64,000 nt of DNA from Candidatus Micrarchaeota archaeon (GTDB taxonomy: Archaea > Micrarchaeota > Micrarchaeia > Anstonellales > Bilamarchaeaceae). A program made the position numbers and the translations under genes. Under the pieces are notes generated by a model. That model saw only the letters and a list, made by a program, of their open reading frames with translations, ran no database searches and was not told the DNA's origin. Below, one piece after another: positions 2-36,405 of the stretch; within the stretch, counting starts at the first letter, position 1; each line of letters begins with the position of its first letter. The stretch is from assembly GCA_040754495.1 (NCBI GenBank), contig JBFMCO010000022.1:24908-88907 (forward strand), given 5' to 3'.

Positions 2-3000
2 TCTGTTGCAAAGGCCGCCATCGAGCGCTACGAAATCGTGGAGCGTAATATCTACAACGCCCTTCCGACAGCGGTGATAGACGAATGGGACCACCACGGC
101 ACGATTGCGCTGCGGGGGGAACCTACACCCGAAAACGAGGAAGGGCCGGTGCTGGGCCGCGTAAGCATGGAAAAGATACGCAGGTACGAGAGCGAGCACC
201 CCGATGATACGGCTCTCGGGGGAGGTCTGAGTCTCAAGACACTCCTTACGAAAATGAAAAAAGCGGCCGAAGAAGGGGACGACGAGGCATTCAGGAAATA
301 CGAGAAGGCGTTCTTCTCAAGGCTATACCTGGTCGCTGGACGCATCTTGAGGCGGGAGCAGCTCGAGGAGAACAGGCAGGAGGTAAAAAAGTACATAGAG
401 GTCCTCGAAGGCTTCACGGCGGCCATTACAATCGACCAGCTTGTGCCTTACGGATGGCTGGAAGGGGACGATGAAAGGCTGAAGAAGGTCACGGCTCTTG
501 AAAAACAGCTTAAAAATAACGAGATAAGCAAGGCGGAGTTCGAGAGCAAGCTGAACGTGATTCTTTCCGAGCGCCTGCAGATGATAGAGCAGAACAAGTT
601 CACGGACAAGGTCCCGGGGCCCATGAGGGAAACGGTCCGGCAGCTGGCGCCGAGGGCGAAGGCGTTGCTAGAGAGAGCCCGGGGCCTTTATGGCAAGCTC
701 GAAAAGATGGACAACAACAGCAGTGAATTCCCGCTCGAGGAATACAAGCAGGTCGTAAAGGACTTGAGCGCGCTGACGGAGGAGTACCAGACACAGAGGA
801 AGATTTCGGTCGCCTATTCACATATCGACCAGCAGCTCCAGATGAATAAGAGCTACCATGAGGCCATCGCCGGAGAGGGCGCGTTAGCCTCGGATTACCC
901 AGACGCTTATGGGAGGGCGGTCAAGTTCCTCGGCTTCTCGAACGGACATTTCAAAAAAGCCCAGGAGCTTCTCCTTAAAGGAGAGTTCAAACAGGCAGGC
1001 GCGGAGTTCGAGCGCGGTATAAACCGCCGCGAGTGGGCGCTGATGGAGGCCGACCCGAACGTGCTCTTCGGCCAGGCGAATACCTACCTTGGAAACCTCC
1101 CGATAAGCATGCTGACAGGAGTGCCCATCATCCCGGAATCCACGACAGCGATGGACGAGGTCAGCATGATCAAGCACAGGCCGGGCTGGGGCGTGCTGAA
1201 ATTAGCCGCAAGGGGGAGGGGGGAGGACCCGTACAAGTATACGTACGGGTGGGCCAAGCAGCAGATGGAGAACGACCAGGACGTCAACCTTGGCAATCCG
1301 GCGAGGCCGGACTATGTGAAAGACCCCCAGCAGAGCTGGGCTTACTATAATTACAGCCCCATCACCGAGTACGGCGCCGACTTCATGGGCTACGAGGAGC
1401 TTGGAGGGCGGCTATGGAACTCGGTCCTTGAGGGAGATGGCAGGAAAGTCCAAAGATACCAGAAGCAGATGCTGGTGATGGAAGCCTCGGTTTTCTATAT
1501 CCCGGTAGATACCTTCATAGACGGGATAAACTCCAAGATTACATACAAGGACTGGCAAAAGAGGATACACTTCCAAGCCATGTATAACGGCGACCTCGCG
1601 TATGATGAGCTGTTTGGCGACTGGGGGCTCATGGACGCGAGGACCGGGGCCAAAATCGCAGAAGGCGTCGGGATGTTTGCGCTCTCCATCGCCACGATGG
1701 GCCTCGGGAGCGTTGGTTTCGTCGTGGGCGGGGGGAAGATGCTATGGGATGCCATAGACGGGATACAGAAGGACCTCGCCAAGTACGGCGAGGTAACCAC
1801 CATGTCCTGGGTCAACCTCGGCCTCACGGTCGTGGGACTCGGAGCGAGCGCAGCAGCAGGCAGGCTGGTGAAGGCGTCCCAGACGGCGATTGAAGCCGCA
1901 AAGCTTGGCGATGCTGCTAAATTCACCACGCAGGTGGCGCGCGCCGGGAGGTTCGCGACCGCGGCGAGGGTCGTCGCCTACACCGATATAACCGTCAACG
2001 TAATCGGCATGGTGCCGCAGTTCTATTACGGAATCAAGCTCATGGCGGAAGGGAAATACGCCGAAGGCACGCAACAGCTCGCTTTCGGCGCATTCTCGGC
2101 CTTCATGGCGTACCATGGCGGTGTGCAGCAGCTACGCGGCATGAGGGGCCTGAAGACGGAAATCGCGAAGATGGGGGCGCTGAGAGAGGCGCATGCCAAG
2201 GCCCCAGAGGTCTTTGCAAGCCTCTCTACTCCGGAGGGGATGTTCTCGTTCCTGCAGCGCGTCCGGGCGAGGGACCCGGTCTCGCTCGTCATCTATGACA
2301 ACCTGCCGAAGCCCCAGCGCATACTTTTCGACGGGATGCTCGCTGACCGGAACGTCGTTTCCGCGCTCAAGAAAAACGATATCGGCTTGGCTAGGGGCGC
2401 CTTCGACAGCGGGCTCGAAACATTTAAGCAGCTATCCGACCTTGGCGGAACAAGGGCGCTCACGGACGCGGCGCATCTTGGCACGCAGGCCGGCCTCGAG
2501 CCGTTCATGAGAGACCTCCTGATACCTGAAAGCGCGACCGGCCCGCAGCGCACGCGGAGGGACGCGGCGTATGCGAGGCTGGGGGAGATGAAGAAGCGGC
2601 CCGAGACCGCAGAGGCCGCGGCCACCATAGAGACGCTGCTCAAGGACAAGGACGTGCAGAAAGGGAACGAAACAGGGGTTCTGAAGATAGGGTGGGCTGC
2701 CGACGAGATACGGAGCCAGCAGATGCAGACGATTAACAGATATACCGATTCAGTCGTGAGCGGCGAGCAGGCCCGCCTCGGATTATATTCGAGCGAAGGC
2801 GAAGCCGCGCGCGCGAACGCGAAAAGGATAGGGGATTCCTACCTTGCATATGCCAGGGCGAGGAGCGAGGGGAAGCCGTTCGACTGGGATTATCACGCAA
2901 AACGGATGGGCATGGGGCCGGAGGATGCCAAAAAGCTGTTTGCGAAGCTGGATGCCGTGCCGGACGCGAGGACGGTAGCGGGAGTGATATCCAGGGAGGG

Positions 3001-6000
3001 CGTCCGCCAGGCAGTCCGGAATAGGGTGGCCCTTGACGGGCGCGCGATACTCGGGGACACGCCGCTTACCGAGCTCGCCGGCGAAGGGGCGCTGTTCTCA
3101 AGGTGGGGCGAACTCACCCCTGAAGACCTTTTCGGCATGGCGCTAAACAGGAGGGAGAGGGCTGCAGAGGAACTCGAAGGGGCGGGCAGGGAAACGGATG
3201 GGAGGCTGGCCGCGGCAAAGAGGGAACGGGCGACCGCCCTCTCGCGCGAGGCCGATGCCCTAGATGCAGAGGTAAAAAGGCGGCAGGCGCCCGAGGAGGT
3301 ATTGACGCCCGATTCACTCCGCAGCGGCGCAAAGGAGAAGTTCGGGCGGGCCCAGCGCCTGCGCAGCGAGGGAAGGGACGAGGAGGCATTCGCGCTTGAG
3401 AGCGAAGCGAGGCGGAGCATAGCGCTCGCGGCAGACCTGGAGAAGTTCGGCGAATACGGCATCGTCCGTGCGACCCCGGACGGGCAGTTCATACACAGGG
3501 ATTTCCCTGACAGGAGATTCACAAGGGCGGAGCTGGATGACGCTGCCATACTCGTGAGGGCCATCAGGAAGAGGGGCGTCCCGACCGACAAGCGCCTTCT
3601 GGCCATATACGACGCGCTGCCGAAAGAGGTCAAGAAGGATTACCGGGGCGGCGAGGACGCCCTGATGAAGTCCGTGCTCGATGTAATCTATTCACGGAGG
3701 GGGCAGGCGGCCGAGGCGGCGGCTCCGGTGCTCCGCTCCGAGGAGCTGCCGGTCCCCTCAGACCCGGCCCTTGCCGCAGTGGCCGGCATGACGGTGCCCG
3801 GGACGAACCTCAGGTGGGGAGTGATACCTCCGGACCAGGTGCTTCAGTGGCAGGCGAAGGTCTATGAGGCTTACAAGGCCGCGTACGGGAAAATCGGCCT
3901 CATCTACGACAGCCCGGAGGCGATGTTCGCGAAGAACCCAGAAGTCCTGGTCGCGACGGACGGCGAGGGGAGGATTGTCGCATTCACGATTCTGAAAAAG
4001 ACCGCTTTCGGGACGAAGCTGTCCCTTGTCGGGGCGGTGCCTGACATCCCCGAGGGAAGGGCTGCCGCAAGGGCAATGATACAGGGCTTTCCAGCTCTCG
4101 AGGGTGCCTATATCACGGCACCGGGTGCTCCTGCGCATCTTGCAATCAAGGCCGGAGTGCCGGTCGTCCCTTACGATTCGGCAAGAATCATCCAGGGCGA
4201 GGTTCCGGCCGAGGCCGGAAGCCCGGGCGCGTACCAGAACGGGGAGGGGAAGTGGGTCCGCCAGGAGGCGCAGCGCGGGGACGGTCCTGAAGGCATGGCT
4301 GCCATTAGCAGGATGCCAGGGTTCGCGGACTCGGAGCTCGTGAAGCACGCCATAGCGCAGGACGGGGTGAAGCCCGGCGCGAAGCCCGAGGAGCTCACCT
4401 GGAACGACTTGGTTGAGCAGGCGGTGAAGATGGGCGAGCTTCCGGACAGGCCGGAAGTCAGGCAGAACGCGTTCGCGGTGCCTATGGTGATAAACGGGAA
4501 GCCCGAAATCGTGGTCAAGGTCATGTTCGGCAAGCCGCCGGCAGACGCGCTCGAGGTGCGCTCGGTCCTGCAATCAAGGGGAATTGGCGGGCAGGTAGCC
4601 GCGGATGCAATAAACCTTTACAAGATTTTCAATGGCGAGCAGGTGCCGCTCGAAGTCGCATCAAGATACATGGACGTCACGCTGCATGACCAGTACACGC
4701 GCATAAAGCAGGAGAAGATTGCCTCTGGGATGCCAGAGACGAAAGCCGATGCCGAGGCCCTCGTGGAGGTAGCCAAAAGCATGGCGCCCCGCGCCGGAGA
4801 GGGCGGGTTGGAAGCGGGCGGCCCGATATCTCAGGAGGGGGTGGAGCTCCTCAGGATGGCCGAGGGGAAGCTCGACCTCGTGGAGGGGCTGACCGGGGCG
4901 GATGTCGCGAAGGCGACACTGGACTGGAGCCAGCCCAGGCTGGAGATGCTCAGGATTCTTACTGTTGAGGGAAGCCCGTACCGGGAGCGGTTCCTCGCAG
5001 CGGACCCGGCCGAGCGCGCGGTCATCGCGGACGCGATTGCAAGGGGCGCGACACCGGAGCGCGCGTTCCTCAAGGCGGCCGAGGGCATGGTGCCTGCGGA
5101 TGGCCGAAAACTGCTTGAGGTGGGAGAGCGGCTGAAGGGGCTTCCCGAAGCAGAGAGGAATCTCAGGTTAAGAGACCTTGAATCGCTGAATCCGGCCCTC
5201 GGAAGGATGCTTAAGAGGCTGGCGGACCCTGCGACTCCGGAAACTGTGAAACAGGAGATTGCGGCCGAATGGGATTCGGCTGTTGCGGGCGCAGAGAGGC
5301 ATAAGCGGGTCAATGAGGCGAGAGCGGCGCGGGACGCTGCGCAGCTTGCTGAGCAGGAGCTCGCCCTGCTGAAAGGGACGCCGGACGAGCAGGCCGCAGG
5401 ACGCGTGCCGGCATGGATAGAGTCGGCCGCGAAGGCAAGGGGAAAGGACCCCGCGGCGCTCCATGAGGCGCTCGTGAAGGCATACGGAGAAGGCGGAACC
5501 GAAGGCAGGCTCAGGGTGCTTAACGAGCTGGGCGCGCTCGGCGGGATGCCTGAGGGGGTGCGCTCCACCTTCGTGCAGAACAGCCCGGAGTTCTTCGAGC
5601 TCATAGTGCGGGGCGGCCTTGAAGGCCGCGTGGCGGCGATGCCTGGATTCGAGGGCGGGATCATAGTCAATGCGGAGAAGCTCGAGGGGCTTCGCGGGGC
5701 GTACAAAATCGACGTGGAGATGCCGGACGGGTCAAAGCGCTCGCTGTTCGTGAAGGCCGAAGACCTGGTGCCGGCGCAGCTTGGAAGCGAGCTTGCCGGG
5801 GGGCATGGGCTTCTTCCGCCCGTGATACACGCGGCCGACGGACAGGGCATGCCCTTCACCTATGATACGGGGATAAGATACACGGACCCCGTCTCAGGGC
5901 AGGAGACGGCGCACATGCAGGAGTTCGGCATAATGGAGGACGTCCATGATTATGCGACAGCCAGGCACAGCGACGTCATCATGCTTCCGGACGGCAGGAG

Positions 6001-9000
6001 CGCGCAGGTTACCGTGGAGAGCGTGGCGGTCGTCTCCAGGGAGGTGTTCGCGGACCCGGCGAGGATGCAGGCGATACTAGCGGACGAGCATCATCCCGCG
6101 CACAAGGTTGTCAAGGCGTTCTGGGAGCTTGCAAAAACAGAGGAGGGAAGGCAAAGGATTTTCCAGGCATGGCGGGCCTATCACGAGCTCTCGAGGAGGG
6201 CCATGCTCCTCGACCGGTTCGACAGGAACACGGTGGCAGTGCTCGTCACCACCCCGGAGGGAGAAAGCGTCCTCACGTTCCAGCCCATCGACATGGACTA
6301 TGTGGCGGGAAAGATAGGCTCGGACGGCGACCTTCGGTTCTTCAATGACGACTTCGCGTCAGCGAGCGTGGATTTTGCTACGAAGATTGCGGGGGCTGCG
6401 GGGGTTCCCGCAGAGACCGTCCTGGGAGAGATGGCGAAGGCGTACGGCTCTGACAGTGTGTTCCCGCGCGAAGCCGCGGACGAGAGGGCGGCCGCAGCGG
6501 CCTCGGTGCGCGCCACGCTGAACAAATACGACGGCAAGCCTTTCGGGGCCGGCTACGACGTCGAGGACTACGGCAAGACGATTGGAAAGGATTACGTCGA
6601 ATACGGCGGCAGGGACAGGATAGTCGGCCGGAGGGACGGCCGCGCGATTCTGCACGCCGGCGACATCACCCCGCTCGGCGAGCGGATAGGCGGGGCCGAG
6701 GCTGAGGCCGATTTCAGCAGGTTCAATCGGGAGAAGTTCGAGAGGATGGCAAAGCCGCTCGAAGAAGCGGCTCCGCCTCCGGCAGTGGAAGCGCAGCCGC
6801 CCGCCGGAGAGAAGACTCCGCCCGGAAAGCGCGGTGCCGGCAACGTAACGCCGCCGGCAAGGCCGGGTGCGATGCGGGGCGCGCCTGCAGGCGGGCCGAG
6901 AACCGTGCCGGGCAAACGGGGGGCCGGAGGCGGGGAGCCGGTTGCAGCGCCGGGCGGAAGGAGGAAGGTGGCAATCGGAGGCGGGGAGGTGGAGCTCGAG
7001 CCTGCGCCGGAAAGGGCTCCGGAGCTCGCCGCGATGAAGATAAGCGAGGACGAGCTTTCGCAGCTCGGCGTCTCATACCAGGGCCTTTATCAGGACGGCG
7101 CAGGGAGGAGGCTGAACGTATTCGAAACGGAGGCCGGGGGGGAGAGGAGGCTTGTCGCCATCCCGGCAGACCTCAGCGGGAAGGCGATGCTCGATGCAAT
7201 CGGGGCCGAGGTGCGCGCCCTGGGAAGGCCGACGGAACTGCCGCCGGAGCTGCGCGGCATGCCGCCGGACGTTTCGTCCCAGGTCGGGATGGACGGGGCG
7301 CCAAAGGCAAGGCTGCTCTCGTCCGAGCCCCTGGGGCGCGGCTCGAGCGCGGACGTGTATCTTGCGGAAATGGTGATTGACGGAAGGCCGACCCGCGTCG
7401 CGGTGAAGATATACAAGAACCCGGAGGGAAACGGGACGTGGCAGGAGCGGGCAGAATATTTCGCGGACGAGGTGAGGAAAGCGAAGATCCTGGGCGATGC
7501 AGGCCTCGGCCCGAAGGTGTTCGGGATTGCCGATGCGGGCGGGAACATGGCTTTCGCGATGGAGGTCATCGAAGGCAAGCCGATGTACATAGACGAGATG
7601 GCGCCCGGGCTCCGCGCGAAATACATCAATGAGGACACGTTCGCGCAGGTCCGGAAAATGTATGACGAGCTGATAGCCCACGGATACGAAATCGGCGATT
7701 TCGATTTCATGATATTGACCGAAGGGCCGAATGCCGGCAGGGTTGTGTTCCTGGACGCCGGGGCGCTGCGGGAGGTGCCGCGCGGCGCCCAGGGCGAGCC
7801 ACGGCCAAGGTACGGCGACGGCGCGAAGAGGGCGGAGGGCGGGAGGCTTCAGGCTGAGGCCATGACCGCCATGGAATATTTCACGAAGATGGACCGCGAC
7901 GAGCTTGCCGCGGTAGCCGAGGTCTCGAAGGGCCTGCTCGGACAGGGCCATGTGGATTCGGACACCATGCGCCTGCTTGCGGTAAGATGGGGGAGCCGCG
8001 AGGGAAGGGCCAGGGCGATAGGAGAGTATATCACCAGTATCGCAGGGGCCGATGAGCAGAAGGCAAAGGCCACGTTCGACGCGCTGAAACGCATCGAGGC
8101 GGAAACCGGCATACGGCTGCTGCCGGATGGCGCGAGGTTCGAGGACCTTGCAGCCAGGGCGGGGGAGGGCGAGATATCGGAGGCGGAAATCATCGCGCCG
8201 ATGTCAGGGGACGATTACCATGCCGCGCTCGCAGGGATGCGCACGCAGGCAGCACGCGAAAGCGTAGCGCTCCACTTCAGCGGAAGGGGCGAAATCCCGG
8301 ACGCGGCCACCTTCGAAAATGCTGCCATACTGGCCGATGAGGCGGCAGGCGCGAAGGTGCCGGAGCAGGGCCAGGCCGAGCTGTCCGTATATTATGATGG
8401 GAACGGCAGGATAATCGGCATAGCGGATAACGAGCGGCTCTTCTACGGCGACCCCAAGGCGATAAATGACAAGACGCCGGAGGCGAAGGTCAGGGTGGAC
8501 CTGGAGAGCGGCAGGATAGTCTCCATGGACGAGCGCGGCATGAAGAACCCGCTCCTTGCGGACCTGGTAGGGCTGAGGATACTTCCGGGCAAGGGAGCGG
8601 AGGGCGCAGGGCCCGGCGGAAGGGGCCCGCCACCGTTGCCCCCGATGAAAGTGCTTGACGAAGGCAGCATAGTTTCGGCTTATGCAAGCGGGACAGGGCA
8701 GGCGCAGAGGACGAGGGCCGCCCGGTCGTTCGTGATGCTCGATGGCGAGGGGCAGGGGAGGGTGATATCGGAGCTGCGCTCCCAGGGCCGCCATGAAGAG
8801 GCCAGGCATCTTACCGAGCTGCAGGCGATAGGTGGGGAAGCCGGCGCAGGCATCGAAAGGGTTTACGGAATCCCGAGGGACGAGATTATCACGATATACG
8901 CGCGGGAGCCGACAGCCCAGGGCGCGAGGAAGGCGCTCGCGGAGAGGCTCGGCATCGTCATCCTGCCTTTCGAATGGGAGCATTATCCTGCGGACAGGAG

Positions 9001-12000
9001 GCAGTGGGTGTCCGTCCCGTACCGGGATTTCAGGTCTTTCGAGGACGACCACTTCCTCTTCGGGCTCATTACCTCAGGGAACATGATTGACACGGTCTCG
9101 CAGATGTATCCGGGAGGGAGGATAGCCTCCATAGAATACCATAACGGGGCGATAGGCGCTTACGAGGTCGCCATCAGGACGCAAAACGGGGAGACGCGCA
9201 CCGTTTTCGTGAAGAGGCAGGATTTGCGCCCGGATGCGGCCGGCTCGGACTACTCGGTCCGCTCAGGCGTCCCGGCTCCTGAGGTCATCACCAGCGCCGG
9301 AGGCAGGGAGCTTACTTACGTCGGCCCGGACGGGGAGGTCTCGCGCTACGGCATTATAACCAACATGAGGGATTTCGGGGGGATGATGAGGTTCGGGGGA
9401 GTCGAGGCGCAGGTCAGGGCTACGGACGAGACCGCGCTGTGGGACCTCGACAGGAGCCCCCTTGCCGGCTCGCTCATGTCTCAGGACCCGCAGGTGAGGG
9501 CGAAATTCTGGGAGGAGCTCGGCTACATGCTGGCAGGCTCTTACGCGACCGGGATATGGGACAGGCATGCGGGAAACGCGCGCGCGATGGTCCTCGAGGT
9601 GCAGAACGCGGACGCGCACACGAACCCCGCGGACCAATCATCACCGACAGTGGGCGAGGCGCTGTCGCAGAAGGGCTACTGGGTGTGGCAGCAGGACGGA
9701 AAGACGTACATGTTCATGATAGGCGGCATAGACACCGACACCGCGGCCAACTACCTTGCCGGCGAGGCGCACGGCAGCTTCGACATGACCGGCATGAACA
9801 TAAGGTACGGCTATGTCGACCTCCACAGCCTCTTTAACAGGCTAGCGACGATAAGAGGCACGAGCGTGGATGCGCTCGTCATGGAAGCCTTCGGCGATGT
9901 CAGCGGCGGTCAGGTGCCCGGCCCGGTCGCGATGGGCATGAAGAGGTGGTGGCGCGACTTCGGGAGCGACCCGCACTATGCCGATGAGATGGCCGGCCGG
10001 TTCTCCAGCCACGAAGGCGAGAGCATAGGCTTCGGATACCCCAGGACCGAGCAGGAGCTGGACGTGATAAGGCAGGGGGGCGTGCTCCATCAGGAGAATC
10101 CGCAGAACGGCGACCCTTACACCATCATCGCCTTCGCTGACGGCAGGTCTCGGATGAGGCCGGAATACGAGATAGTGCACCGTGAGGACATCGAAGCCCT
10201 CGACCCGCGCATAGCCGCGATGTTCCCTCCAGGGAGGGACATGTACGCCGTGGAGATAACCGGCGAGGTGCGGAAGGCCGTTCCGGACATAGACAAGAGG
10301 ACGAACCGCATCCGGACCTCGGACGGCAGGATGGTCGCGATAATAGACTCGGCCGACCCGCTCGCGAAAACGCTGCTCGACGGGGGAATTCCTATGGTGA
10401 AGGCGAGGCGCGACATGCCCCGGCAGGGAGAAGTTGCCGTGGATGATGCGACCGGCATAATACGGGCCGCTCCAGGGTTCGGAAAGCTGACCGGAATCCA
10501 GGCCTACCAGGCCGGCCCGGTTCCGGTTTTCCGGGCGATGATGGGGGCAGGGGAGGGGTTCATGCTCGGGCAGTTCGCGCACATCGGCCATTATATATTG
10601 GCCAAGGAAACGAGCGTGAGGGAAGCCGCGCAGGTTCCTGCCGGAGTGGTGGCCGGGGAGATAGAAGCGCCGGGAATAGAGCGCATGCCCGCCCCGGCGC
10701 AGGTGGAAGGGGTAAGGGGCGGGATGAGGGACCTGGTAGGGGCAGTCAGGTCCGGAGACGAGGGCAGGATAAGGGCCGCGGAAGCCGAGTACGATAAGAG
10801 GCTCGGAGTGCTGGCCAGGCTAAGGCCAGATACGGAACTGAGGGTCGTGGAAAACGAGACGCTGTTCGCGGACCTGGCTCCAGGGGGGCAGGCACAAGCG
10901 AAGGTGCTCGCGGCAGACTATCTCAGGAACAGGTCCGCAGGAAAGAAGCTTGACGGCGACCTGCTCGTCATCGACTACCTCGTATCGCATGGAATGAACG
11001 CGGTGGATGCGGCTGCGGCAGTCGTGAATCTGGGGGGCGCCGGGAAGGCGCCTGCCCCTGTGACGCTTCCGCCGTACGTTGCCGAGCACTTCGGGACCAG
11101 GCAGCCTGACCCGGTCACGGCTGAAAACGCGCTGATTCTTGCCGGGGACAGGAATACGCTCGGAAGATTGGGCATACCGGACGGCCTTGGCAGGGTCCTG
11201 AAAAGCGAGGGCATGGCTGTCGTGTCCGAAGGAAAGAGGATGACCGAGGTGAGAGGCTATTACGATCTGGAGAGCGGCAGGATAATATACCTCGGCAGGA
11301 CGGACGCGCCAAGGGAGGTCACGGCGGGAGGAGTGGAGTTCGTCCTCCGTTTCGACCATGAGAGCGGGAGGGTATCCATTCCGGAAAGCGAGGACGTGCC
11401 GCTTCCGGATTCGATTGCCAGGCTGAACGGAATGCGCATTGCGCCCCCGCCCCAGGCAGTGCCGTTTGGCGTTTTCGGCATTTTCATGCCACTGTTCAAG
11501 TATTTCAGGAAGCCCCCGGCAGCCGCCCCGCAACCTGAGGCCGTGCCCATCAAGGTCCCGAGGTCCAGGAACGACATCCAGGGAAGGGCCGAGGGCATAA
11601 GGGGGCTGCCCCCGGACCAGCAGGCGCAGGAGCTTGCGGGGCTGCACGATGCCGTGGCCGCCGAGCATGGCGACGTTTATGCGAGGAATTACCGCGACAT
11701 GATGGAGGAGCTGGTGAAGCATCCGGAGCATTCGGGCAGGATTCTCGACGAGTGGGAGGCGGTGAGGGCCGAGGAGAAGCATTACGAGGCGCTCGAGAGG
11801 GCGAGGAGGTATGCCTTCTCGGCCGCAGAGGGGTTCGGGATTGTCAGGGGGCAGGACAGGAAGCTCATATCAGGCGGAGAGTACGCGGCGGACATGGCAC
11901 GCTCGAGGGGCGAGAAGCCCAAGGCATTCCGGAAACGGCTCCTCGAAGCGTATGATGCCGGGTTCAGGAGAGGAGGCGTGCTCGATGCGAGGCTCGGCGT

Positions 12001-15000
12001 GGCAAATTCGCTGGGTGTGCTCGACAATATAGTGGTAGAGTCGCGGCCGGGCGTCTTGGACGAAAAGAGGACGATGCAGGCGAGGAAGGAATTCATCAGG
12101 AAGAACCCGGAGTTCTTCGACCTAATCATGAGGGGCGGACTCGAGGAGGTCATCTCCGCGAACCTCGGGGCCGGCGACGTGAGAATCGCAGGAGTCTCGC
12201 ACGCGGGCGGCATGGCGCGGGGCGCGTACGGCGTGGAGGTCCTCCTTCCGGACGGCAGGAGGAAGCGCGTGTTCGTGAAGCTGGAGGACCTCGGGCCTGC
12301 CGCGTTCGGGGCTGATTTGGCCAGAGTCGAGGGCATGATTGCGCCGAAAGTCTTCACTGCGGATTCGCAGGGAAGGCCGCTCTCGTATGACGTGAGCTAC
12401 AAGGACCCCATCGGAAAGAGGATGGTGAGCGGCCAGAGGCGCTTTGGCATCATGCTGGATGTCCGCGACACGGTAGGGCAGAAGGCCAGGGTGAGGACCG
12501 CGGACGGGAGGTTCAGGGAGATAACGGTCACGAGCGTGGCGCTCGTTGGCGACGACATCTTCAATGCCAGGTCGCTTGACGGGATACCCCAGCCCTCCAG
12601 GGCCGCCGCGGAGGACTTCTGGACCGCAATGGGAAGCGAGGGCGGGCGCGAGGAGATGTTCAGGACGTGGTACGCGTACCAGGAGATGTCAAGGCGGGCC
12701 ACCCTCAGCGACAGGCACACCGGGAATTCGATGTACGTCATCGGCGTGACGTCGGATGGCGAGACCGTGAGGACGTTCCAGCCCATAGACCCGGACGATA
12801 TCGGAGCCAAGGTCGAGGCCAGGCCGGAGGGCATGAACTTCAGCGAGTTCAACGATTTTTCCGCGCTCTACACGTCGAATTTCGTGAACGGCCTGTACCT
12901 CGCGTCGGATAACGCCGCGAGCCTCGGCCTGCTCAAATCCCCGATCAACCGCGCGCAAGCGAGCAGGGCAGCATCGAGCGACGCCGCGATGTCAGGGTGG
13001 AGGCTTCCGGAAGACCCCGGGTGGGTGAGGTCCGCGGCTGAGTTCATAATCATGGATTACGATGGCAAGCCGTTCGGCCTCGGAACGGACATGACGATAG
13101 GCGGGCACGGCTCGTACATAAAATACCATGCCGGCAGGAGGAGGGCGGCAGGCTACGACGGCCGCGTCCGGATGTACTCGGACGAGATGCTGGCGGTTTA
13201 TCGGGGAGCGCAGGACCCTGCCAACGCGGCGGATGTCGCGCGCAGGGTGGATGAGCGGATGGGCTGGGAGAACGCCGGCCACATGAGGGCGCTTGAGCGG
13301 AGGTATCCGGACCTCGGCACCCTGCCTCCGCACATGCAGGAGTACAGGGAGCCCCTCGAGCGTGCGCGCAGGCGCATAGCGGGCGGCGAGAAGCCCGATG
13401 ACGTTTACCTTGACGAGTCGAAGAGGATGCTGAGGGCTAATCCCCGGGAGAGGGCGAAGGCCGAGGACATAATCACGAGGCACGGGAGGGGCGTGGCAGA
13501 CGCCGAGGTGTCCGCGGTCCTGGAGTTCCAGAAGAGAAACGGCATCGCGTCTTTCGAAGATGCGGCGTATGCATTCGTGAGACAGCAGGCCGCGCCGAAA
13601 CCTCCAGCGGAACCGCTGCAGCCATCCGAAGCCATTTACCGGAAGCATGAAGCGAATATTTTCGGCCCTGCCCGGGGGCAGCTTGGCAGCGAGCTCCTTG
13701 CCAGCCTGAGGGGCGCTGAGGAGAGGATAGCCGGCATGGTGCCTGAGGGGCCGGAGAGGGAGCGCGCGCTCAAAAGATGGGGCGAGTTTGCAGACCGGGC
13801 GCTCTCGCGCATCGCCGATCTCCCGGCACCCGAGCGCGCGGACGCGCTGGCGCGCTTCATGATAGCGGGCGACTATCTCCTCACAAGGGCGGCTGAGAAC
13901 CCGGCGCGCACGAAGGCATGGCTCGATTTCATCGCCGACAACCCGAACGCCGTCGAATACGCCATGCTCGCCAAACGAGGTCTCGACATAAGGGCGCAGG
14001 ACATAGTCGTGGCCGAAATCCGCCCCAGCATCCATGACATGTCTGACAGGAAAGCGCTGAAGAAGGCCCTCGGGAAGAGGGTATCGTTCATGGAGGACGT
14101 GATACGCGAGATACCGGAAAGGTGGTTCATGGAGGCGGGGGTGAGGCGCGATTATATGATGGACCTTGCAGGTTCCGACCCGCTCAGGGCGGCGGCCGAG
14201 CTCGACCGCGTCACGATGCCGCACGGAATCAGTGTTGTGAGGAAGGCAACGGGCGTGTACCTCGCAGAGGTCTCGCACACGTTCTCGCTGCATGGCCAGC
14301 CGGACATCCGGGGCCTCGTAATAACCGGCGCTTACGGGACGGGCGACATGTTCGACGGCATGACCGCGTATTTCAATCCCCTCAGCGGCAGGATTTTCAT
14401 GCGCGGGACTGCCCATTTCGCGGAGGCCGGCATACCGGAATCCGCGCTTCCGGGCATGAAGATGACGTACGTGCATGAGATGCAGCACCTGCTCGACAAC
14501 GCCGGCGGGTATGTCGCGGCACTCTCGGCCAGGTCTGCAGGGCGCGGAATGGCCTTCATGCCGGAATACCGCGCCAGGCTCGAGACCACGGCGGTCGCGA
14601 GAGAGGTCCTGGAGATGGTTCCCCGGCTGGGGGGCCGCGGGACCGAGGATGCCATCAACGCAGCCATCAGGAAGGACCCGGAGGAATACAAGCAGGCTTA
14701 CAGGAAGGCGCTGGACGCCATGCGCACAGGCGAGGACGGAAGGCCCGACCCGGACTGGGCGGGCAGGCCGCCCGAGGTTCTGCAGAACCGGCTGAGGAAG
14801 CTTATAGACGACGAATACCGGAGCCTTATGCCGCTGAGCTATACCGAGCTCTACGGGCCGACAACCGCAGGGATCGTCCGCGGGGAGATCACGGTCAGGA
14901 AGCCGGCCGCCCCCGAGGCCGTTCCCTTCAAGCCCGCCGTAGCCGCGGACTCGGCTCCGGGACGCGGGGAGCCGGACCTGCTGCGCTCTGCCAAGTATGA

Positions 15001-15796
15001 AAATGGAATCCTGACGATAGAGGCGGATTACCTGGGAGGCGAGCTTGCACATGCGGTGAAGCCGCAATTCGCCGAATCCGCGGTGAATGGCGAGTTCATC
15101 CCTTCCGGCGACAGGACAAAGCCGAGCGGCCTGTGGCTCTCGTGGGGCTCCGGCTGGGATTACTTCACAGGGAGCAACCCCGGCCTGATGTTCAAAGGCA
15201 CCGTGAAGTTCAGGGCCGAGATGAGGTCCGGATTGAAGCTCTTCCTGCTTGACGGGCGCGAATCTTTCGATAGCATGATGGCCGAATTCCGGCGGGAAGT
15301 TAAGGTCGCCGAGACAACGGGGAGCGGGTATCCGGATGGCACCTGGCCTGATAACAACTGGGTGTACTACGAGAAGAGCCCATGGCAGTGGCTTAGGGAA
15401 AGGGGCTATGACGGCGTGGCCGTGACGGAGGAGGGATATCTGGATACCAATTTCCAGTTCGGCTGGGACGCGGCCTCCATAGTCATTTTCGAGCCTGCGG
15501 GCAATGTGCGCCTGCCTGGAGGCGAAGCCAGGCTGGAGGAGTACAGGAAGGGTGCCCAGGGCAGCGCGGACGCCATGCTGCCCCTTATTGAAGAGGCAGG
15601 CCTGCCGTTATTCGGCCCGAATAAGGCGTATGACCTCATAGAGGCGTACGCCGGCGGCAGGGCTGAGCGCAGCCCGGGAAAGCGCATCGATGCCGAGGAT
15701 GAGGCTTTCCTTAAAAAGCTCCTGGACGAGAAACCGGGCCTTGAAGAGGCTGCGAAAAGGATTATCGAATACGTTAGAAAGAGGGAAGGGGGATAG
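2..15796 (+). CDS. Giant multidomain protein (>5,260 aa, 5'-truncated; polyvalent/polymorphic-toxin-like)
   Basis: The frame is open from base 2 (no stop before the GTG at 38) to TAG at 15796. It contains hydrophobic helices (1664-2119), a GNAT-like segment (~3836-4170), three repeated kinase-like modules with VK..D and DRxxxN...ID motifs, an LGRGSSADVY/VAVK/DAG kinase (7331-7770), HEMQH (14474-14488) and KPSGLWLS...GYDG...WDAASIVIF (15119-15496). Confidence 0.9.
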   Translation, partial: SVAKAAIERYEIVERNIYNALPTAVIDEWDHHGTIALRGEPTPENEEGPVLGRVSMEKIRRYESEHPDDTALGGGLSLKTLLTKMKKAAEEGDDEAFRKYEKAFFSRLYLVAGRILRREQLEENRQEVKKYIEVLEGFTAAITIDQLVPYGWLEGDDERLKKVTALEKQLKNNEISKAEFESKLNVILSERLQMIEQNKFTDKVPGPMRETVRQLAPRAKALLERARGLYGKLEKMDNNSSEFPLEEYKQVVKDLSALTEEYQTQRKISVAYSHIDQQLQMNKSYHEAIAGEGALASDYPDAYGRAVKFLGFSNGHFKKAQELLLKGEFKQAGAEFERGINRREWALMEADPNVLFGQANTYLGNLPISMLTGVPIIPESTTAMDEVSMIKHRPGWGVLKLAARGRGEDPYKYTYGWAKQQMENDQDVNLGNPARPDYVKDPQQSWAYYNYSPITEYGADFMGYEELGGRLWNSVLEGDGRKVQRYQKQMLVMEASVFYIPVDTFIDGINSKITYKDWQKRIHFQAMYNGDLAYDELFGDWGLMDARTGAKIAEGVGMFALSIATMGLGSVGFVVGGGKMLWDAIDGIQKDLAKYGEVTTMSWVNLGLTVVGLGASAAAGRLVKASQTAIEAAKLGDAAKFTTQVARAGRFATAARVVAYTDITVNVIGMVPQFYYGIKLMAEGKYAEGTQQLAFGAFSAFMAYHGGVQQLRGMRGLKTEIAKMGALREAHAKAPEVFASLSTPEGMFSFLQRVRARDPVSLVIYDNLPKPQRILFDGMLADRNVVSALKKNDIGLARGAFDSGLETFKQLSDLGGTRALTDAAHLGTQAGLEPFMRDLLIPESATGPQRTRRDAAYARLGEMKKRPETAEAAATIETLLKDKDVQKGNETGVLKIGWAADEIRSQQMQTINRYTDSVVSGEQARLGLYSSEGEAARANAKRIGDSYLAYARARSEGKPFDWDYHAKRMGMGPEDAKKLFAKLDAVPDARTVAGVISREGVRQAVRNRVALDGRAILGDTPLTELAGEGALFSRWGELTPEDLFGMALNRRERAAEELEGAGRETDGRLAAAKRERATALSREADALDAEVKRRQAPEEVLTPDSLRSGAKEKFGRAQRLRSEGRDEEAFALESEARRSIALAADLEKFGEYGIVRATPDGQFIHRDFPDRRFTRAELDDAAILVRAIRKRGVPTDKRLLAIYDALPKEVKKDYRGGEDALMKSVLDVIYSRRGQAAEAAAPVLRSEELPVPSDPALAAVAGMTVPGTNLRWGVIPPDQVLQWQAKVYEAYKAAYGKIGLIYDSPEAMFAKNPEVLVATDGEGRIVAFTILKKTAFGTKLSLVGAVPDIPEGRAAARAMIQGFPALEGAYITAPGAPAHLAIKAGVPVVPYDSARIIQGEVPAEAGSPGAYQNGEGKWVRQEAQRGDGPEGMAAISRMPGFADSELVKHAIAQDGVKPGAKPEELTWNDLVEQAVKMGELPDRPEVRQNAFAVPMVINGKPEIVVKVMFGKPPADALEVRSVLQSRGIGGQVAADAINLYKIFNGEQVPLEVASRYMDVTLHDQYTRIKQEKIASGMPETKADAEALVEVAKSMAPRAGEGGLEAGGPISQEGVELLRMAEGKLDLVEGLTGADVAKATLDWSQPRLEMLRILTVEGSPYRERFLAADPAERAVIADAIARGATPERAFLKAAEGMVPADGRKLLEVGERLKGLPEAERNLRLRDLESLNPALGRMLKRLADPATPETVKQEIAAEWDSAVAGAERHKRVNEARAARDAAQLAEQELALLKGTPDEQAAGRVPAWIESAAKARGKDPAALHEALVKAYGEGGTEGRLRVLNELGALGGMPEGVRSTFVQNSPEFFELIVRGGLEGRVAAMPGFEGGIIVNAEKLEGLRGAYKIDVEMPDGSKRSLFVKAEDLVPAQLGSELAGGHGLLPPVIHAADGQGMPFTYDTGIRYTDPVSGQETAHMQEFGIMEDVHDYATARHSDVIMLPDGRSAQVTVESVAVVSREVFADPARMQAILADEHHPAHKVVKAFWELAKTEEGRQRIFQAWRAYHELSRRAMLLDRFDRNTVAVLVTTPEGESVLTFQPIDMDYVAGKIGSDGDLRFFNDDFASASVDFATKIAGAAGVPAETVLGEMAKAYGSDSVFPREAADERAAAAASVRATLNKYDGKPFGAGYDVEDYGKTIGKDYVEYGGRDRIVGRRDGRAILHAGDITPLGERIGGAEAEADFSRFNREKFERMAKPLEEAAPPPAVEAQPPAGEKTPPGKRGAGNVTPPARPGAMRGAPAGGPRTVPGKRGAGGGEPVAAPGGRRKVAIGGGEVELEPAPERAPELAAMKISEDELSQLGVSYQGLYQDGAGRRLNVFETEAGGERRLVAIPADLSGKAMLDAIGAEVRALGRPTELPPELRGMPPDVSSQVGMDGAPKARLLSSEPLGRGSSADVYLAEMVIDGRPTRVAVKIYKNPEGNGTWQERAEYFADEVRKAKILGDAGLGPKVFGIADAGGNMAFAMEVIEGKPMYIDEMAPGLRAKYINEDTFAQVRKMYDELIAHGYEIGDFDFMILTEGPNAGRVVFLDAGALREVPRGAQGEPRPRYGDGAKRAEGGRLQAEAMTAMEYFTKMDRDELAAVAEVSKGLLGQGHVDSDTMRLLAVRWGSREGRARAIGEYITSIAGADEQKAKATFDALKRIEAETGIRLLPDGARFEDLAARAGEGEISEAEIIAPMSGDDYHAALAGMRTQAARESVALHFSGRGEIPDAATFENAAILADEAAGAKVPEQGQAELSVYYDGNGRIIGIADNERLFYGDPKAINDKTPEAKVRVDLESGRIVSMDERGMKNPLLADLVGLRILPGKGAEGAGPGGRGPPPLPPMKVLDEGSIVSAYASGTGQAQRTRAARSFVMLDGEGQGRVISELRSQGRHEEARHLTELQAIGGEAGAGIERVYGIPRDEIITIYAREPTAQGARKALAERLGIVILPFEWEHYPADRRQWVSVPYRDFRSFEDDHFLFGLITSGNMIDTVSQMYPGGRIASIEYHNGAIGAYEVAIRTQNGETRTVFVKRQDLRPDAAGSDYSVRSGVPAPEVITSAGGRELTYVGPDGEVSRYGIITNMRDFGGMMRFGGVEAQVRATDETALWDLDRSPLAGSLMSQDPQVRAKFWEELGYMLAGSYATGIWDRHAGNARAMVLEVQNADAHTNPADQSSPTVGEALSQKGYWVWQQDGKTYMFMIGGIDTDTAANYLAGEAHGSFDMTGMNIRYGYVDLHSLFNRLATIRGTSVDALVMEAFGDVSGGQVPGPVAMGMKRWWRDFGSDPHYADEMAGRFSSHEGESIGFGYPRTEQELDVIRQGGVLHQENPQNGDPYTIIAFADGRSRMRPEYEIVHREDIEALDPRIAAMFPPGRDMYAVEITGEVRKAVPDIDKRTNRIRTSDGRMVAIIDSADPLAKTLLDGGIPMVKARRDMPRQGEVAVDDATGIIRAAPGFGKLTGIQAYQAGPVPVFRAMMGAGEGFMLGQFAHIGHYILAKETSVREAAQVPAGVVAGEIEAPGIERMPAPAQVEGVRGGMRDLVGAVRSGDEGRIRAAEAEYDKRLGVLARLRPDTELRVVENETLFADLAPGGQAQAKVLAADYLRNRSAGKKLDGDLLVIDYLVSHGMNAVDAAAAVVNLGGAGKAPAPVTLPPYVAEHFGTRQPDPVTAENALILAGDRNTLGRLGIPDGLGRVLKSEGMAVVSEGKRMTEVRGYYDLESGRIIYLGRTDAPREVTAGGVEFVLRFDHESGRVSIPESEDVPLPDSIARLNGMRIAPPPQAVPFGVFGIFMPLFKYFRKPPAAAPQPEAVPIKVPRSRNDIQGRAEGIRGLPPDQQAQELAGLHDAVAAEHGDVYARNYRDMMEELVKHPEHSGRILDEWEAVRAEEKHYEALERARRYAFSAAEGFGIVRGQDRKLISGGEYAADMARSRGEKPKAFRKRLLEAYDAGFRRGGVLDARLGVANSLGVLDNIVVESRPGVLDEKRTMQARKEFIRKNPEFFDLIMRGGLEEVISANLGAGDVRIAGVSHAGGMARGAYGVEVLLPDGRRKRVFVKLEDLGPAAFGADLARVEGMIAPKVFTADSQGRPLSYDVSYKDPIGKRMVSGQRRFGIMLDVRDTVGQKARVRTADGRFREITVTSVALVGDDIFNARSLDGIPQPSRAAAEDFWTAMGSEGGREEMFRTWYAYQEMSRRATLSDRHTGNSMYVIGVTSDGETVRTFQPIDPDDIGAKVEARPEGMNFSEFNDFSALYTSNFVNGLYLASDNAASLGLLKSPINRAQASRAASSDAAMSGWRLPEDPGWVRSAAEFIIMDYDGKPFGLGTDMTIGGHGSYIKYHAGRRRAAGYDGRVRMYSDEMLAVYRGAQDPANAADVARRVDERMGWENAGHMRALERRYPDLGTLPPHMQEYREPLERARRRIAGGEKPDDVYLDESKRMLRANPRERAKAEDIITRHGRGVADAEVSAVLEFQKRNGIASFEDAAYAFVRQQAAPKPPAEPLQPSEAIYRKHEANIFGPARGQLGSELLASLRGAEERIAGMVPEGPERERALKRWGEFADRALSRIADLPAPERADALARFMIAGDYLLTRAAENPARTKAWLDFIADNPNAVEYAMLAKRGLDIRAQDIVVAEIRPSIHDMSDRKALKKALGKRVSFMEDVIREIPERWFMEAGVRRDYMMDLAGSDPLRAAAELDRVTMPHGISVVRKATGVYLAEVSHTFSLHGQPDIRGLVITGAYGTGDMFDGMTAYFNPLSGRIFMRGTAHFAEAGIPESALPGMKMTYVHEMQHLLDNAGGYVAALSARSAGRGMAFMPEYRARLETTAVAREVLEMVPRLGGRGTEDAINAAIRKDPEEYKQAYRKALDAMRTGEDGRPDPDWAGRPPEVLQNRLRKLIDDEYRSLMPLSYTELYGPTTAGIVRGEITVRKPAAPEAVPFKPAVAADSAPGRGEPDLLRSAKYENGILTIEADYLGGELAHAVKPQFAESAVNGEFIPSGDRTKPSGLWLSWGSGWDYFTGSNPGLMFKGTVKFRAEMRSGLKLFLLDGRESFDSMMAEFRREVKVAETTGSGYPDGTWPDNNWVYYEKSPWQWLRERGYDGVAVTEEGYLDTNFQFGWDAASIVIFEPAGNVRLPGGEARLEEYRKGAQGSADAMLPLIEEAGLPLFGPNKAYDLIEAYAGGRAERSPGKRIDAEDEAFLKKLLDEKPGLEEAAKRIIEYVRKREGG

Positions 15797-15814: not shown

Positions 15815-16357
15815 TCAGGGCACGGCCTGCCCGTTTATCACGAAGCTGAATTTCTGCCTCTCCTTCTCAAGCGCCTTCACGGTTTCCAGAGAGTCCTTCA
15901 GCATGCGCAGGAAAGGCTCCCAGGAGCCGCTGCCGGAATGGATGCTGCGGATGGCCTCGGAAACGACGACCTTCCTTTTCTTGTCCACGAAAGTGCAGTA
16001 GATGCTGCTTCCCCGGCGCCTGACATCGATGCCGTATTCCGCGAAATCCTCCTCCGGCGGAAGTGTGGCGCCGAGCGCGAGCGCGGATGCGACGGATTCT
16101 ATCCCCTTCCTCGGCTCGGACGAATAGGACTGGACGCCGACGCCGTCCTTGAGATAAAGGCTGTCCGGAATCCTGAGGAGCGGCTCCAGCTCCCGGGGCA
16201 TCCCGCCGGCGATTTCCGCGAGGGTGTCCATGAGGCGCTCTTTAGTTGCGCGGTCCCGCAGGAGCGGATCTGCCAGCATCTTCTGGAACCTTTTTTCGCC
16301 TATGTCCGTTACGGTTGCTCCGGCCGTTTTCTTTTTTCTCTTTCCTGCCATCGTCAC
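15815..16357 (-). CDS. Hypothetical protein, paralog family A (copy 1)
   Basis: Shares IP..LY, YGI and CTxVDxKRxVVV motifs and GSW..FL with 17458-17988 and 16354-16902. Confidence 0.75.
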   Translation of the reverse strand: MTMAGKRKKKTAGATVTDIGEKRFQKMLADPLLRDRATKERLMDTLAEIAGGMPRELEPLLRIPDSLYLKDGVGVQSYSSEPRKGIESVASALALGATLPPEEDFAEYGIDVRRRGSSIYCTFVDKKRKVVVSEAIRSIHSGSGSWEPFLRMLKDSLETVKALEKERQKFSFVINGQAVP

Positions 16358-16902
16358 ACCAGGTACATGTCGCCGCAGTCGCTGACCGCTACTCTCCCCG
16401 GCTTCGCCTTCGCGGCTGCCTCGGCGGCCCTTATCGCGCCAGCGACTTCCGCCCAGTCCTTTTTTTGCGGCTTGTCCATATAGCGCATGAGCGGCTCCCT
16501 CACCATTATCCTCCGGCCCATGTCCGCGAGCACGAGATAGACTGTGCTTGTCGTCTCATAGACGGCGATGCCGTATCCCATGTCGGGCTTCCGGTCCATA
16601 TGGCCGGATGAAAGGAAACGCGCCAGGACAGCGTTTATCCCGAACCCGGCGTCATCCGAAAGCGTGATTGCATTACCGGCCTCGCGCCGGTAAAGGCGCG
16701 CGGGGAGCGCAAGCGCCGCCTTGACATCCTCGCTCCAGTTCTGCGCGTATCCTGCAAGGCCCGAAGCGGCGTCCTCCCGCGACACGGAGGCAGGTGGCGC
16801 AGCTTCTGCAAGATGGCCTTCAGTGGCGCCGGCCTTCGCGATGAACGGCTTTTCCGGCGGAGGCAGGGGCACTGGACCGCGGGCATCCCTTTTCTTTGGC
16901 AT
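16354..16902 (-). CDS. Hypothetical protein, paralog family A (copy 2, divergent)
   Basis: LPARLY and GYGIAVY...LVLADMGRRIMV match the family pattern; 4-bp overlap with the next gene. Confidence 0.7.
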   Translation of the reverse strand: MPKKRDARGPVPLPPPEKPFIAKAGATEGHLAEAAPPASVSREDAASGLAGYAQNWSEDVKAALALPARLYRREAGNAITLSDDAGFGINAVLARFLSSGHMDRKPDMGYGIAVYETTSTVYLVLADMGRRIMVREPLMRYMDKPQKKDWAEVAGAIRAAEAAAKAKPGRVAVSDCGDMYLV

Positions 16903-36145: not shown

Positions 36146-36321
36146 GCAGGAAAAAAATAGCGGGGGGTAGATTTGAACCCCCAGCCTTTTTATAATCGGA
36201 ATCCTGGCCCCGGAGAAAAAGGCTAGGGTTAACCCAAAAACCAGTTTCTCGGAACCCTGAACCCGAAACGGGAAACCGGAAACAGGATGCAGGAAAAAAA
36301 TAGCGGGGGGTAGATTTGAAC
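36142..36321. repeat. 37-bp direct repeat (36142-36178 and 36285-36321) duplicating the tRNA-iMet 3' end
   Basis: GGATGCAGGAAAAAAATAGCGGGGGGTAGATTTGAAC occurs twice, 143 bp apart. Confidence 0.9.
36243..36290. repeat. 7-nt periodic repeat array
   Basis: GGAACCC TGAACCC GAAACGG GAAACCG GAAACAG downstream of tRNA-iMet. Confidence 0.75.
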
Positions 36322-36405
36322 TACCGGTCCCTGGGTTATGAGCCCAGTGGGAACTCCAAGCTTCCCATAGGGCAAATTCTAGATGTTAGAATTTGTTACC
36401 CCGCT
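36301..36405 (-). tRNA. Initiator tRNA-Met(CAU) with a 30-nt intron at position 9/10 (36367-36396)
   Basis: A1-U72 acceptor AGCGGGG/CCCCGCT+A; three G-C pairs in the anticodon stem CTGGG/CCCAG; T-arm GGTAG-TTCAAAT-CTACC. BHB: GGGG/CCCT central helix and 9-bp inner stem CAAATTCTA/TAGAATTTG. Confidence 0.92.

Follow-up and report, generated by a model that had tools for sequence, protein, structure and literature searches.

A cysteine-free giant protein of a Candidatus Micrarchaeota archaeon with putative kinases of a new family and matching small partner genes

Polyvalent proteins, described by Iyer, Burroughs, Anand, de Souza and Aravind (2017, PMC5512222), carry a protein-modifying toolkit of anthrax lethal factor (LF)-like zincins with an HExxHxxD motif, kinases, GNAT acetyltransferases and ADP-ribosyltransferases (ARTs) of the H-Y-D type; their MPTase domain was placed via the structure of anthrax lethal factor, and the large members are nearly all bacterial, with few in archaea. 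Two further classes are relevant here, polymorphic toxins with immunity proteins (Zhang et al. 2012, PMC3482391) and the SPEARE proteins of Nanohaloarchaeota, which measure 4,000-8,500 aa and take up ~4% of the genome (Hamm et al. 2019, PMC6642349). Here we analyse a gene that invites comparison with all three. It ends at position 15796 of a 64,000-nucleotide stretch, called the window below, from a Candidatus Micrarchaeota archaeon (assembly GCA_040754495.1, contig JBFMCO010000022.1; G000:C22:24908-88907 in our numbering), and is referred to as the giant gene. It is genuine and complete, comes from Micrarchaeota (DPANN) and encodes a modular, polyvalent array of enzymes; together with small partner genes at its 3′ end it looks like an undescribed archaeal weapon-and-safety-catch system.

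As in polyvalent proteins (PMC5512222), many catalytic domains are combined in one huge chain, their number lying within the two to fifteen conflict-type domains of that class; the set is protein-modifying, including the zincin Asp three residues after HExxH, the domain order is shuffled among relatives, and self-processing of the MPTase kind is plausible. Unlike those of polyvalent proteins, the gene is chromosomal and archaeal and sits among housekeeping genes, not on a phage or plasmid. The protein has no DNA-processing or anti-restriction domains, the families PF18818 and PF18760 do not match it, and, beside kinases predicted to resemble PI3/4K and CotH, it has a membrane hairpin as well as small partner genes that match the kinases in count. 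With polymorphic toxins (PMC3482391) it has in common a large multidomain architecture, variable enzyme modules, evolution of the conflict type, and small cognate genes by the toxin-encoding end, one product of which is predicted to occlude an active site. It differs from them in having no known trafficking or secretion domain in library scans, in carrying its enzymes in series rather than a single toxin at the C-terminal tip, and in that its partner genes are convergent instead of co-directional, the system archaeal and the immunity role putative. The likeness to both classes, which an earlier sequence-only reading of the window had put forward, is apt in view of the module set, the shuffling, a ~15-fold depletion of cysteine, the count-matched partners and the predicted binding of a partner in a catalytic cleft.

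SPEARE proteins (PMC6642349) likewise are giant DPANN proteins with a similar share of the genome, membrane-associated and proposed to interact with a host. Nevertheless, the serine protease, laminin-G/adhesion and type III restriction-endonuclease domains that SPEARE proteins carry were not detected in the giant protein by Pfam, and its enzymes depend on cytoplasmic cofactors whereas SPEARE proteins are mostly extracytoplasmic. A halophile SPEARE protein was considered and ruled out, SPEARE domains being absent (Pfam) and the composition not acidic.

The giant gene and its modules

The frame at window positions 2..15796 (plus strand) is open across 5,264 codons, followed by a stop, and its 5′ end lies beyond the window edge. 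The sequence-only reading, which described an uninterrupted frame of >5,260 aa running off that edge, was correct about the frame and understated its length. Retrieval of the upstream contig, which it had recommended, gave the true start as an ATG at C22:20178, which lies 4,730 nt before the first base of the window and one codon past an in-frame stop; the product of 6,841 aa is complete on the contig, and an identical gene call (P0002) is present in the protein database. The assembly comprises 1.63 Mb in 72 contigs (~80% complete, 62% G+C), and the supposition of a DPANN-like archaeon was borne out, the nearest relative, of the same GTDB genus, being Candidatus Micrarchaeota archaeon MAG016.

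Modules were delimited by self-comparison of protein fragments, by comparison with other giants and by iterated profiles. They are listed here in full-protein numbering, with the window positions (all on the plus strand); K1 to K3 are the three kinase modules treated below, and Lk denotes a linker domain.

Window 2..15796, plus strand: C-terminal 5,264 codons and stop of the giant gene
Residues 1-2100 (the end, 1578-2121, at window 2..1633), plus strand: helical scaffold of ~2,100 aa, rich in Ala, Glu, Lys and Arg
Residues 2122-2347, window 1634-2311, plus strand: conserved module enclosing the hairpin
Residues 2133-2158 and 2175-2200, window 1667..1870, plus strand: Gly/Ala-rich hydrophobic hairpin of two helices
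Residues 2813-3099, window 3707..4567, plus strand: GNAT-like module, a lead only
Residues 3142-3856, window 4694..6838, plus strand: K1 (type A) including its N-terminal extension
Residues 3422-3830, window 5534-6760, plus strand: K1 core
Residues 3985-4290, window 7223..8140, plus strand: ePK/RIO-like module
Residues 4301-4455, window 8171..8635, plus strand: Lk, copy 1
Residues 4466-5133, window 8666..10669, plus strand: K2 (type B)
Residues 5234-5404, window 10970..11482, plus strand: Lk, copy 2
Residues 5478-5995, window 11702..13255, plus strand: K3 (type A)
Residues 6146-6559, window 13706..14947, plus strand: zincin-like metallopeptidase module
Residues 6560-6841: C-terminal module
Residues 6575-6760, window 14993..15550, plus strand: ART-PolyVal-like core, a lead only

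The enzyme modules of the giant protein, of which at least five are supported and two more are candidates, are joined by Pro-rich linkers and the Lk domain. Lk measures ~160 aa, precedes K2 and K3, occurs in 15 copies in related giants and belongs to none of the known families; a copy also follows the ART-like module in G014:C6. When the whole protein was compared with Pfam and NCBIfam no match was obtained at E <= 0.1, and PHROG gave nothing meaningful. For the first 2,500 aa, comparison with Pfam, NCBIfam and PHROG returned chance-level matches only, the sole family matches of the N-terminal scaffold being weak PHROG ones to tape-measure and tail-fibre proteins. Two blocks of the scaffold, residues 123-697 and 1146-1924, are common to a few other giants.

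A survey of Micrarchaeota genomes, also proposed beforehand, did find homologues with shuffled modules. Giants of 4,800-7,300 aa in related genomes have the same modules in a different order; in P0004, for instance, the GNAT-like module is close to the C-terminus, whereas a giant of genome G014 has the C-terminal module at an internal position. Seven enzyme-like modules had been predicted, and seven conserved modules indeed lie at the places claimed, each of which recurs as an independent unit in other giants. Two further paralogues bearing K modules are encoded on contig C42 by open frames of 6,149 and 6,659 codons, and the three giant genes account for 3.6% of the assembly. An additional ORF (open reading frame) that is cut by a contig end (C49:5891-11137, plus strand) is homologous to the scaffold and hairpin region and probably represents the 5′ portion of yet another giant gene, the fourth.

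That the gene is an artefact, either of chimeric assembly or of a chance frame in GC-rich DNA, is scarcely credible to us. The genome is a metagenome-assembled one of 72 contigs, and at 62% G+C long spurious frames are commoner. Against this, many independent assemblies contain homologous giants with these modules, conservation extends to the catalytic residues, and the K1 core is modelled at a predicted local distance difference test (pLDDT) score of 95. The internal K paralogues, just 30-37% identical, have diverged too far for misassembly to arise from them.

Kinase modules and their partner genes

Three of the modules had been read as atypical kinases from the sequence, and structure prediction and fold search confirm this. 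Their motifs lie as follows.

Window 5744-5764, plus strand: K1, FVK
Window 6212-6229, plus strand: K1, DRFDRN
Window 6284-6298, plus strand: K1, IDMD
Window 9203-9223, plus strand: K2, FVK
Window 9560-9577, plus strand: K2, DRHAGN
Window 9725-9739, plus strand: K2, IDTD
Window 12269-12289, plus strand: K3, FVK
Window 12710-12727, plus strand: K3, DRHTGN
Window 12782-12796, plus strand: K3, IDPD

Alignment of 26 K copies (A1) showed the FVK Lys, DRHxxN and IDxD to be invariant; with 93 copies (A2) only D, N and D stay so. K1, K2 and K3 of the giant protein all keep the K, D, N and D residues. The K1 core was modelled by AlphaFold2 (AF2) with a pLDDT of 95.2 and a predicted template modelling (TM) score of 0.93, and when the model was searched against the PDB with Foldseek the top matches were all PI3K, PI4K and PIKK structures (ATM, PI4KIIIβ, DNA-PKcs, Vps34; E ~1e-4). 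Exhaustive structural search with VIA-align placed PI4KIIIβ (Z 12.4, 273 residues aligned, root-mean-square deviation (rmsd) 5.4), CotH (Z 12.1), Vps34 (Z 11.4) and PI4KIIα (Z 10.1) among its matches, and every one of the top 50 has a kinase-like fold; the fold search of the ESM Atlas led to PI3_PI4_kinase (PF00454) clusters at a TM score of ~0.5. The modelled K modules have in common with PI3K/PI4K and CotH kinases the bilobal fold, the β3 Lys, the DRHxxN loop and the metal-binding Asp. They differ in lying within giant proteins, where they are paired with small, predicted cleft-binding partners, and they have an N-terminal helical extension of their own as well as a conserved Gly-rich C-terminal part.

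Identity between the K modules and their structural matches is ~10-13%, and sequence profiles revealed no relation either to PF00454 or to other families of Pfam or the PDB. The K profile gave chance matches only among PDB sequences, with no kinase; kinase families were absent from a Pfam scan of the 26 copies at E <= 1, and a Pfam scan of 10 stand-alone homologues gave no related family. The K modules would thus act like PI3/PI4-kinases yet are not recognised members, because the family sequence profiles do not match. Judged from the models, K1-K3 are atypical kinases of a new family, nearest to PI3/4K and CotH and with intact catalytic residues. When all of 1.84 billion representative proteins were scanned, only 117 relatives emerged, most within proteins of 3,000-7,300 aa. 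Within Micrarchaeota the family is confined to the GTDB family of the source, where it occurs in 28 of 76 genomes from 8 genera, and it is absent from all 324 genomes searched elsewhere in the phylum. A search of the available literature found no description of the family.

Facing the 3′ end of the giant gene in convergent orientation are five small genes (d1-d5), of which three, d1, d2 and d4, are paralogues.

Window 15815..16357, minus strand: d1, type dA, 180 aa
Window 16354..16902, minus strand: d2, type dB, 182 aa
Window 16935-17432, minus strand: d3, 165 aa
Window 17458..17988, minus strand: d4, type dA, 176 aa
Window 18029-18553, minus strand: d5, 174 aa

All related loci examined have homologues of the dA and dB genes next to the 3′ end of the giant gene. 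When K modules are typed as K-A (like K1 and K3) or K-B (like K2) and the small genes as dA or dB, the numbers and types of the latter equal those of the former in 9 of the 12 assessable loci. Two A and one B modules thus correspond to two dA and one dB genes at the giant locus itself, one A and two B to one dA and two dB at two loci of G006, and two A to two dA in G010; giants with only B modules have dB genes only. The products of d3 and d5 have neither a paralogue in the genome nor a Pfam family, and could be partners of other modules of the giant protein.

For the complex of K2 with d2 the predicted interface score (ipSAE) was 0.89, as compared with 0.00 for the best control; the mark applied is reached by 58 of 80 solved complexes and by 2 of 110 mismatched pairs. 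Contacts agreed between runs to at least 71%, and the partner had a pLDDT of at least 80. The confident contacts involve d2 residues 113-121, the tip of a Ser/Thr-rich hairpin, which meets the Gly-rich loop, the FVK region, DRHAGN and IDTD of K2. The prediction supports binding of d2 in the catalytic cleft of K2, and as a model it fits an inhibitor and a substrate alike.

One could conceive of the giant protein as a cell-autonomous, membrane-tethered scaffold for signalling or assembly that remains in the cytoplasm of the archaeon and serves the physiology of its own cell, e.g. attachment or division; its kinases would take the small proteins as substrates, or the small proteins would regulate the kinases as pseudosubstrates. 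In favour of such a scaffold, the Ser/Thr loop of d2 is predicted to lie at the catalytic Asp and Asn and has Ser or Thr at its tip in all 13 homologues, and a one-to-one match in number and type suits pairs of kinase and substrate no less than pairs of toxin and immunity protein. The patchy occurrence of the family in 28 of the 76 genomes of a single GTDB family, and the rapid shuffling and divergence of modules inside one genus, would be atypical for it. Altogether we consider a scaffold unlikely, for reasons that include the cysteine content described next. If the protein were cell-autonomous after all, it would represent a novel type of signalling machine in archaea, a multi-kinase of 750 kDa with pseudosubstrate partners dedicated to it.

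Cysteine depletion, membrane hairpin and a possible mode of action

Not one cysteine is present among the 6,841 residues of the giant protein. The mean in 49 giant relatives is 0.09%, as opposed to 1.36% in the other long ORFs of the genome, a ~15-fold depletion. Proteins that are exported in an unfolded state, among them autotransporter passengers and RTX toxins, typically avoid cysteine, and near-total avoidance across a family would be unexpected for an ordinary cytoplasmic scaffold. Two further long ORFs of the genome are also low in cysteine and without Pfam match, one of at least 3,959 aa (C57:3-11879, plus strand; 0.18%) and one of 2,847 aa (C16:2355-10895, plus strand; 0.11%).

What had been described as a hydrophobic bundle turned out to be the two-helix hairpin at residues 2133-2200 (window 1667-1870). 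Paired hydrophobic helices about one third along the chain are found in many homologous giants, and a pair of hydrophobic segments occurs at positions ~1,800-2,400 in P0003, P0008, P0009, P0010 and P0014. Because the hairpin has two helices, both arms of the chain should be on one side of the membrane. A scaffold as outlined above is consistent with this topology, which would keep both arms cytoplasmic, as well as with the housekeeping genes that flank the locus and with library scans, in which no export signal was found. On the other hand, the combination of a zincin with GNAT-like and ART-like modules matches the toolkits of biological conflict.

From these features we infer membrane insertion, processing, delivery and targets along the following lines. 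The hairpin would anchor the chain in a membrane so that its two arms face the same side. Kinases, GNATs and ARTs require ATP, acetyl-CoA and NAD+, and because of this need the enzymes would have to act in a cytoplasm. Each kinase module may be checked, or supplied with a substrate, by a cognate small protein from a convergent 3′ gene, whose Ser/Thr-rich hairpin would fill the catalytic cleft, and cleavage by the zincin may release active pieces of the chain. Conflict between organisms appears the most likely setting, in which the giant protein would act, once contact is made, on the cell of a host or competitor and the small proteins would provide self-protection. We thus read the giant protein as a polyvalent, conflict-type effector that acts on a host or competitor cell and whose kinases are held in check by cognate small proteins, a reading in which our belief and our doubt are about equal. 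A bolder version, which we regard as possible but rather doubtful, would make this the first archaeal contact-dependent effector system: cysteine-free giants of one Micrarchaeota family would be threaded into the membrane or cytoplasm of a host archaeon, where kinases of the new family, zincin, acetyltransferase and ADP-ribosyltransferase would rewire host proteins or lipids, with one active-site-plugging immunity protein per kinase module.

Several points weigh against an effector role. We know of no route by which archaea export a 750-kDa protein, and scans of family libraries found no signal peptide and no secretion or trafficking domain of known systems in the giant protein. The two-helix hairpin fits a purely cytoplasmic, membrane-tethered protein as well. 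Since Ser or Thr is at the hairpin tip of every d2 homologue, the small proteins may be substrates or regulators rather than immunity proteins, and the calibration of the K2-d2 complex holds only roughly because the prediction used our own alignments. As to the other enzymes, the GNAT and ART labels are unconfirmed leads from the sequence, and the ePK-like module, in which the Asn of the catalytic loop is missing, may be inactive.

The locus supplies concrete, testable parts for the study of how DPANN archaea manipulate their hosts, for which, to our knowledge, almost no effector molecules are known. It defines a new family of putative kinases with intact catalytic residues, and the predicted complex of kinase and partner is directly testable. 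The rule of one small partner gene per kinase module offers a handle for finding such systems elsewhere. The polyvalent design, hitherto nearly confined to bacterial phages and plasmids, is extended to an archaeal chromosome and to a scale of 6,000-7,000 aa.

Remaining enzyme modules and genomic neighbourhood

For the modules other than K1-K3, the identities first assigned from sequence fared unequally: the ePK/RIO-like and zincin assignments are moderately supported, and GNAT and ART found no confirmation by profile or fold. Their motifs and candidate positions are as follows.

Window 7331-7360, plus strand: ePK-like module, Gly-rich loop
Window 7397-7414, plus strand: ePK-like module, VAVK
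Window 7694-7708, plus strand: ePK-like module, DFDF
Window 7748-7762, plus strand: ePK-like module, LDAG
Window 14474-14488, plus strand: zincin, HEMQH, with a conserved Asp three residues on
Window 14582-14605, plus strand: zincin, Glu helix with ExTAxARE
Window 15044-15064, plus strand: candidate ART His position
Window 15128-15148, plus strand: candidate ART Trp position
Window 15404-15424, plus strand: candidate ART Asp position

The zincin alignment has H257, E258, H261 and E293 invariant, the last 32 residues past the second His, and D264, three residues after HExxH, in at least 90% of the copies. The corresponding model (pLDDT 83-97) places HExxH and the Glu on helices 248-266 and 281-323 behind a five-strand sheet. 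VIA-align matched the region to DPP III (Z 7.4, rmsd 4.6, 241 aligned), LTA4H (Z 5.8) and lugdulysin (Z 5.7), all with middling Z. Foldseek against the PDB gave nothing at E <= 0.001 for the combined zincin and ART model (best E 0.09), and a BFVD search of the same model had polyvalent-protein names in its top rows, none of them significant (best E 9.6e-3, probability 0.11) and hence not evidence. With the zincin profile there is a weak match on the catalytic motif of anthrax lethal factor (E 0.14), the very structure via which the MPTases of polyvalent proteins were placed (PMC5512222); a genome search with PF18818 gave no match in the giant gene, and Pfam found no peptidase or related family in 11 zincin copies. 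We assign the HExxH…E module to zincin-like peptidases with moderate confidence, on the strength of motif and model.

A small ORF with a similar motif lies outside the window, 400 nt 5′ of the giant start (C22:18809-19777, plus strand, 322 codons). It has HETLH..D after G-x-Y-V-P…I-x-L and four paralogous matches, two of them on contig C55 and one each on C71 and C65; hhalign related it only weakly to the zincin module (probability 18%), and no match was found in Pfam or the PDB.

The GNAT-like module is conserved in 5 giants, and its nearest language-model clusters are all GNAT (0.95, 121-131 of 256 features in common). No significant match to Pfam or PDB profiles was obtained, and hhalign against 10 bona fide GNATs gave a weak alignment over the β4 stretch alone (E 0.0025, probability 12%). 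For the ART-like core the language-model look-alikes are clusters of ART-PolyVal and AcrIF11 (0.92-0.94, 166-184 features in common). The three known copies conserve a His (LAHAVKP) and an Asp (GYDGVAV) at a spacing that, as a reading of motifs only, fits an H-Y-D site, and the G-h-Y-h-S position reads GLWLS, with Trp where Tyr is expected. PF18760, searched in the genome at E <= 10, has no match in the giant gene; the ART-like profile gave nothing significant against the PDB, a search for homologues of near-equal length found none, and the ART part of the AF2 model is poor (pLDDT 27-79).

In the alignment of ePK-like modules (A3) the Gly-rich loop, the VAVK Lys, DFQ and DxG are conserved, with invariant G, A and K columns. 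The profile weakly matches Rio1 (E 0.06) and ErbB2 along the N-lobe stretch of Gly-loop and VAVK, and other members have weak Pfam matches to APH, PK_Tyr_Ser-Thr and RIO1; scores against PF00069 and PF01163 are far under the cut-offs, and a search for homologues of near-equal length found none. The catalytic loop reads DFQFxVLT (DFDF in the giant protein) and has no Asn five residues on, and just ~110 helical residues follow DxG, most of the C-lobe being missing. Identity as an ePK/RIO-like N-lobe is moderately supported by these motifs, and the truncation recalls the truncated kinases of polyvalent proteins (PMC5512222). Three of 10 homologues have a weak Pfam match to Peptidase_M24 (best E 3.6e-4), probably in an insert that is absent from the giant protein.

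The best family match of the ePK-like module is the defence kinase PD-T4-6 of PADLOC (E 5.4e-4), and this bears on another possibility, namely that the giant protein defends its cell against viruses or mobile elements, as a sensor-effector that shuts down the cell or modifies proteins of the invader, with the small proteins as inhibitors released on infection. The layout of a partner in an active site resembles the logic of toxin-antitoxin systems, and the family is lineage-restricted, patchy and fast-evolving, as defence would have it. We nevertheless hold defence to be quite improbable, since no other PADLOC model matched and no defence genes were found in the flanks examined, since 3.6% of a reduced genome spent on three paralogues of 6-7,000 aa is far above known defence proteins, and since neither the avoidance of cysteine nor the membrane hairpin would be explained.

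On the 5′ side the giant gene is flanked by genes for AlaRS, an aminotransferase and a class II aminoacyl-tRNA synthetase, all housekeeping, and on the 3′ side by housekeeping genes for a formyltransferase, a GT2 glycosyltransferase, CysRS and PolD DP2 with an intein. Because of these flanks the locus is not a mobile element, and cargo of such an element was ruled out on the same ground. We find it very improbable that an integrated virus or conjugative element encodes the protein as a polyvalent one that travels with its DNA by packaging or transfer, as in phages and plasmids. In favour of this, the domain repertoire is that described for polyvalent proteins, such proteins are named in the top, non-significant BFVD rows, and a LAGLIDADG ORF lies 1.6 kb upstream. 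Besides the flanks, what speaks against this is that capsid, terminase, integrase, conjugation and DNA-processing domains were not found in the protein with Pfam and PHROG, that three paralogues at separate loci have the same partner-gene arrangement across the genus, and that the base composition of the giant gene resembles the remainder of the window.

The LAGLIDADG ORF is free-standing (L002:17894-18547, plus strand), and the intein of the PolD DP2 gene (window 25103-29983, minus strand) also bears a LAGLIDADG domain. The sole Rfam match in the window is to tRNA (window 36309-36366, minus strand; 30 bits versus a gathering threshold of 29), covering model positions 10-63 only. Elsewhere in the genome, another very long ORF of at least 3,427 aa is cut by a contig end (C15:3-10283, minus strand), and one of 2,657 aa (C67:13085-21055) encodes a surface-type protein with NosD, beta-helix and DUF11 domains.

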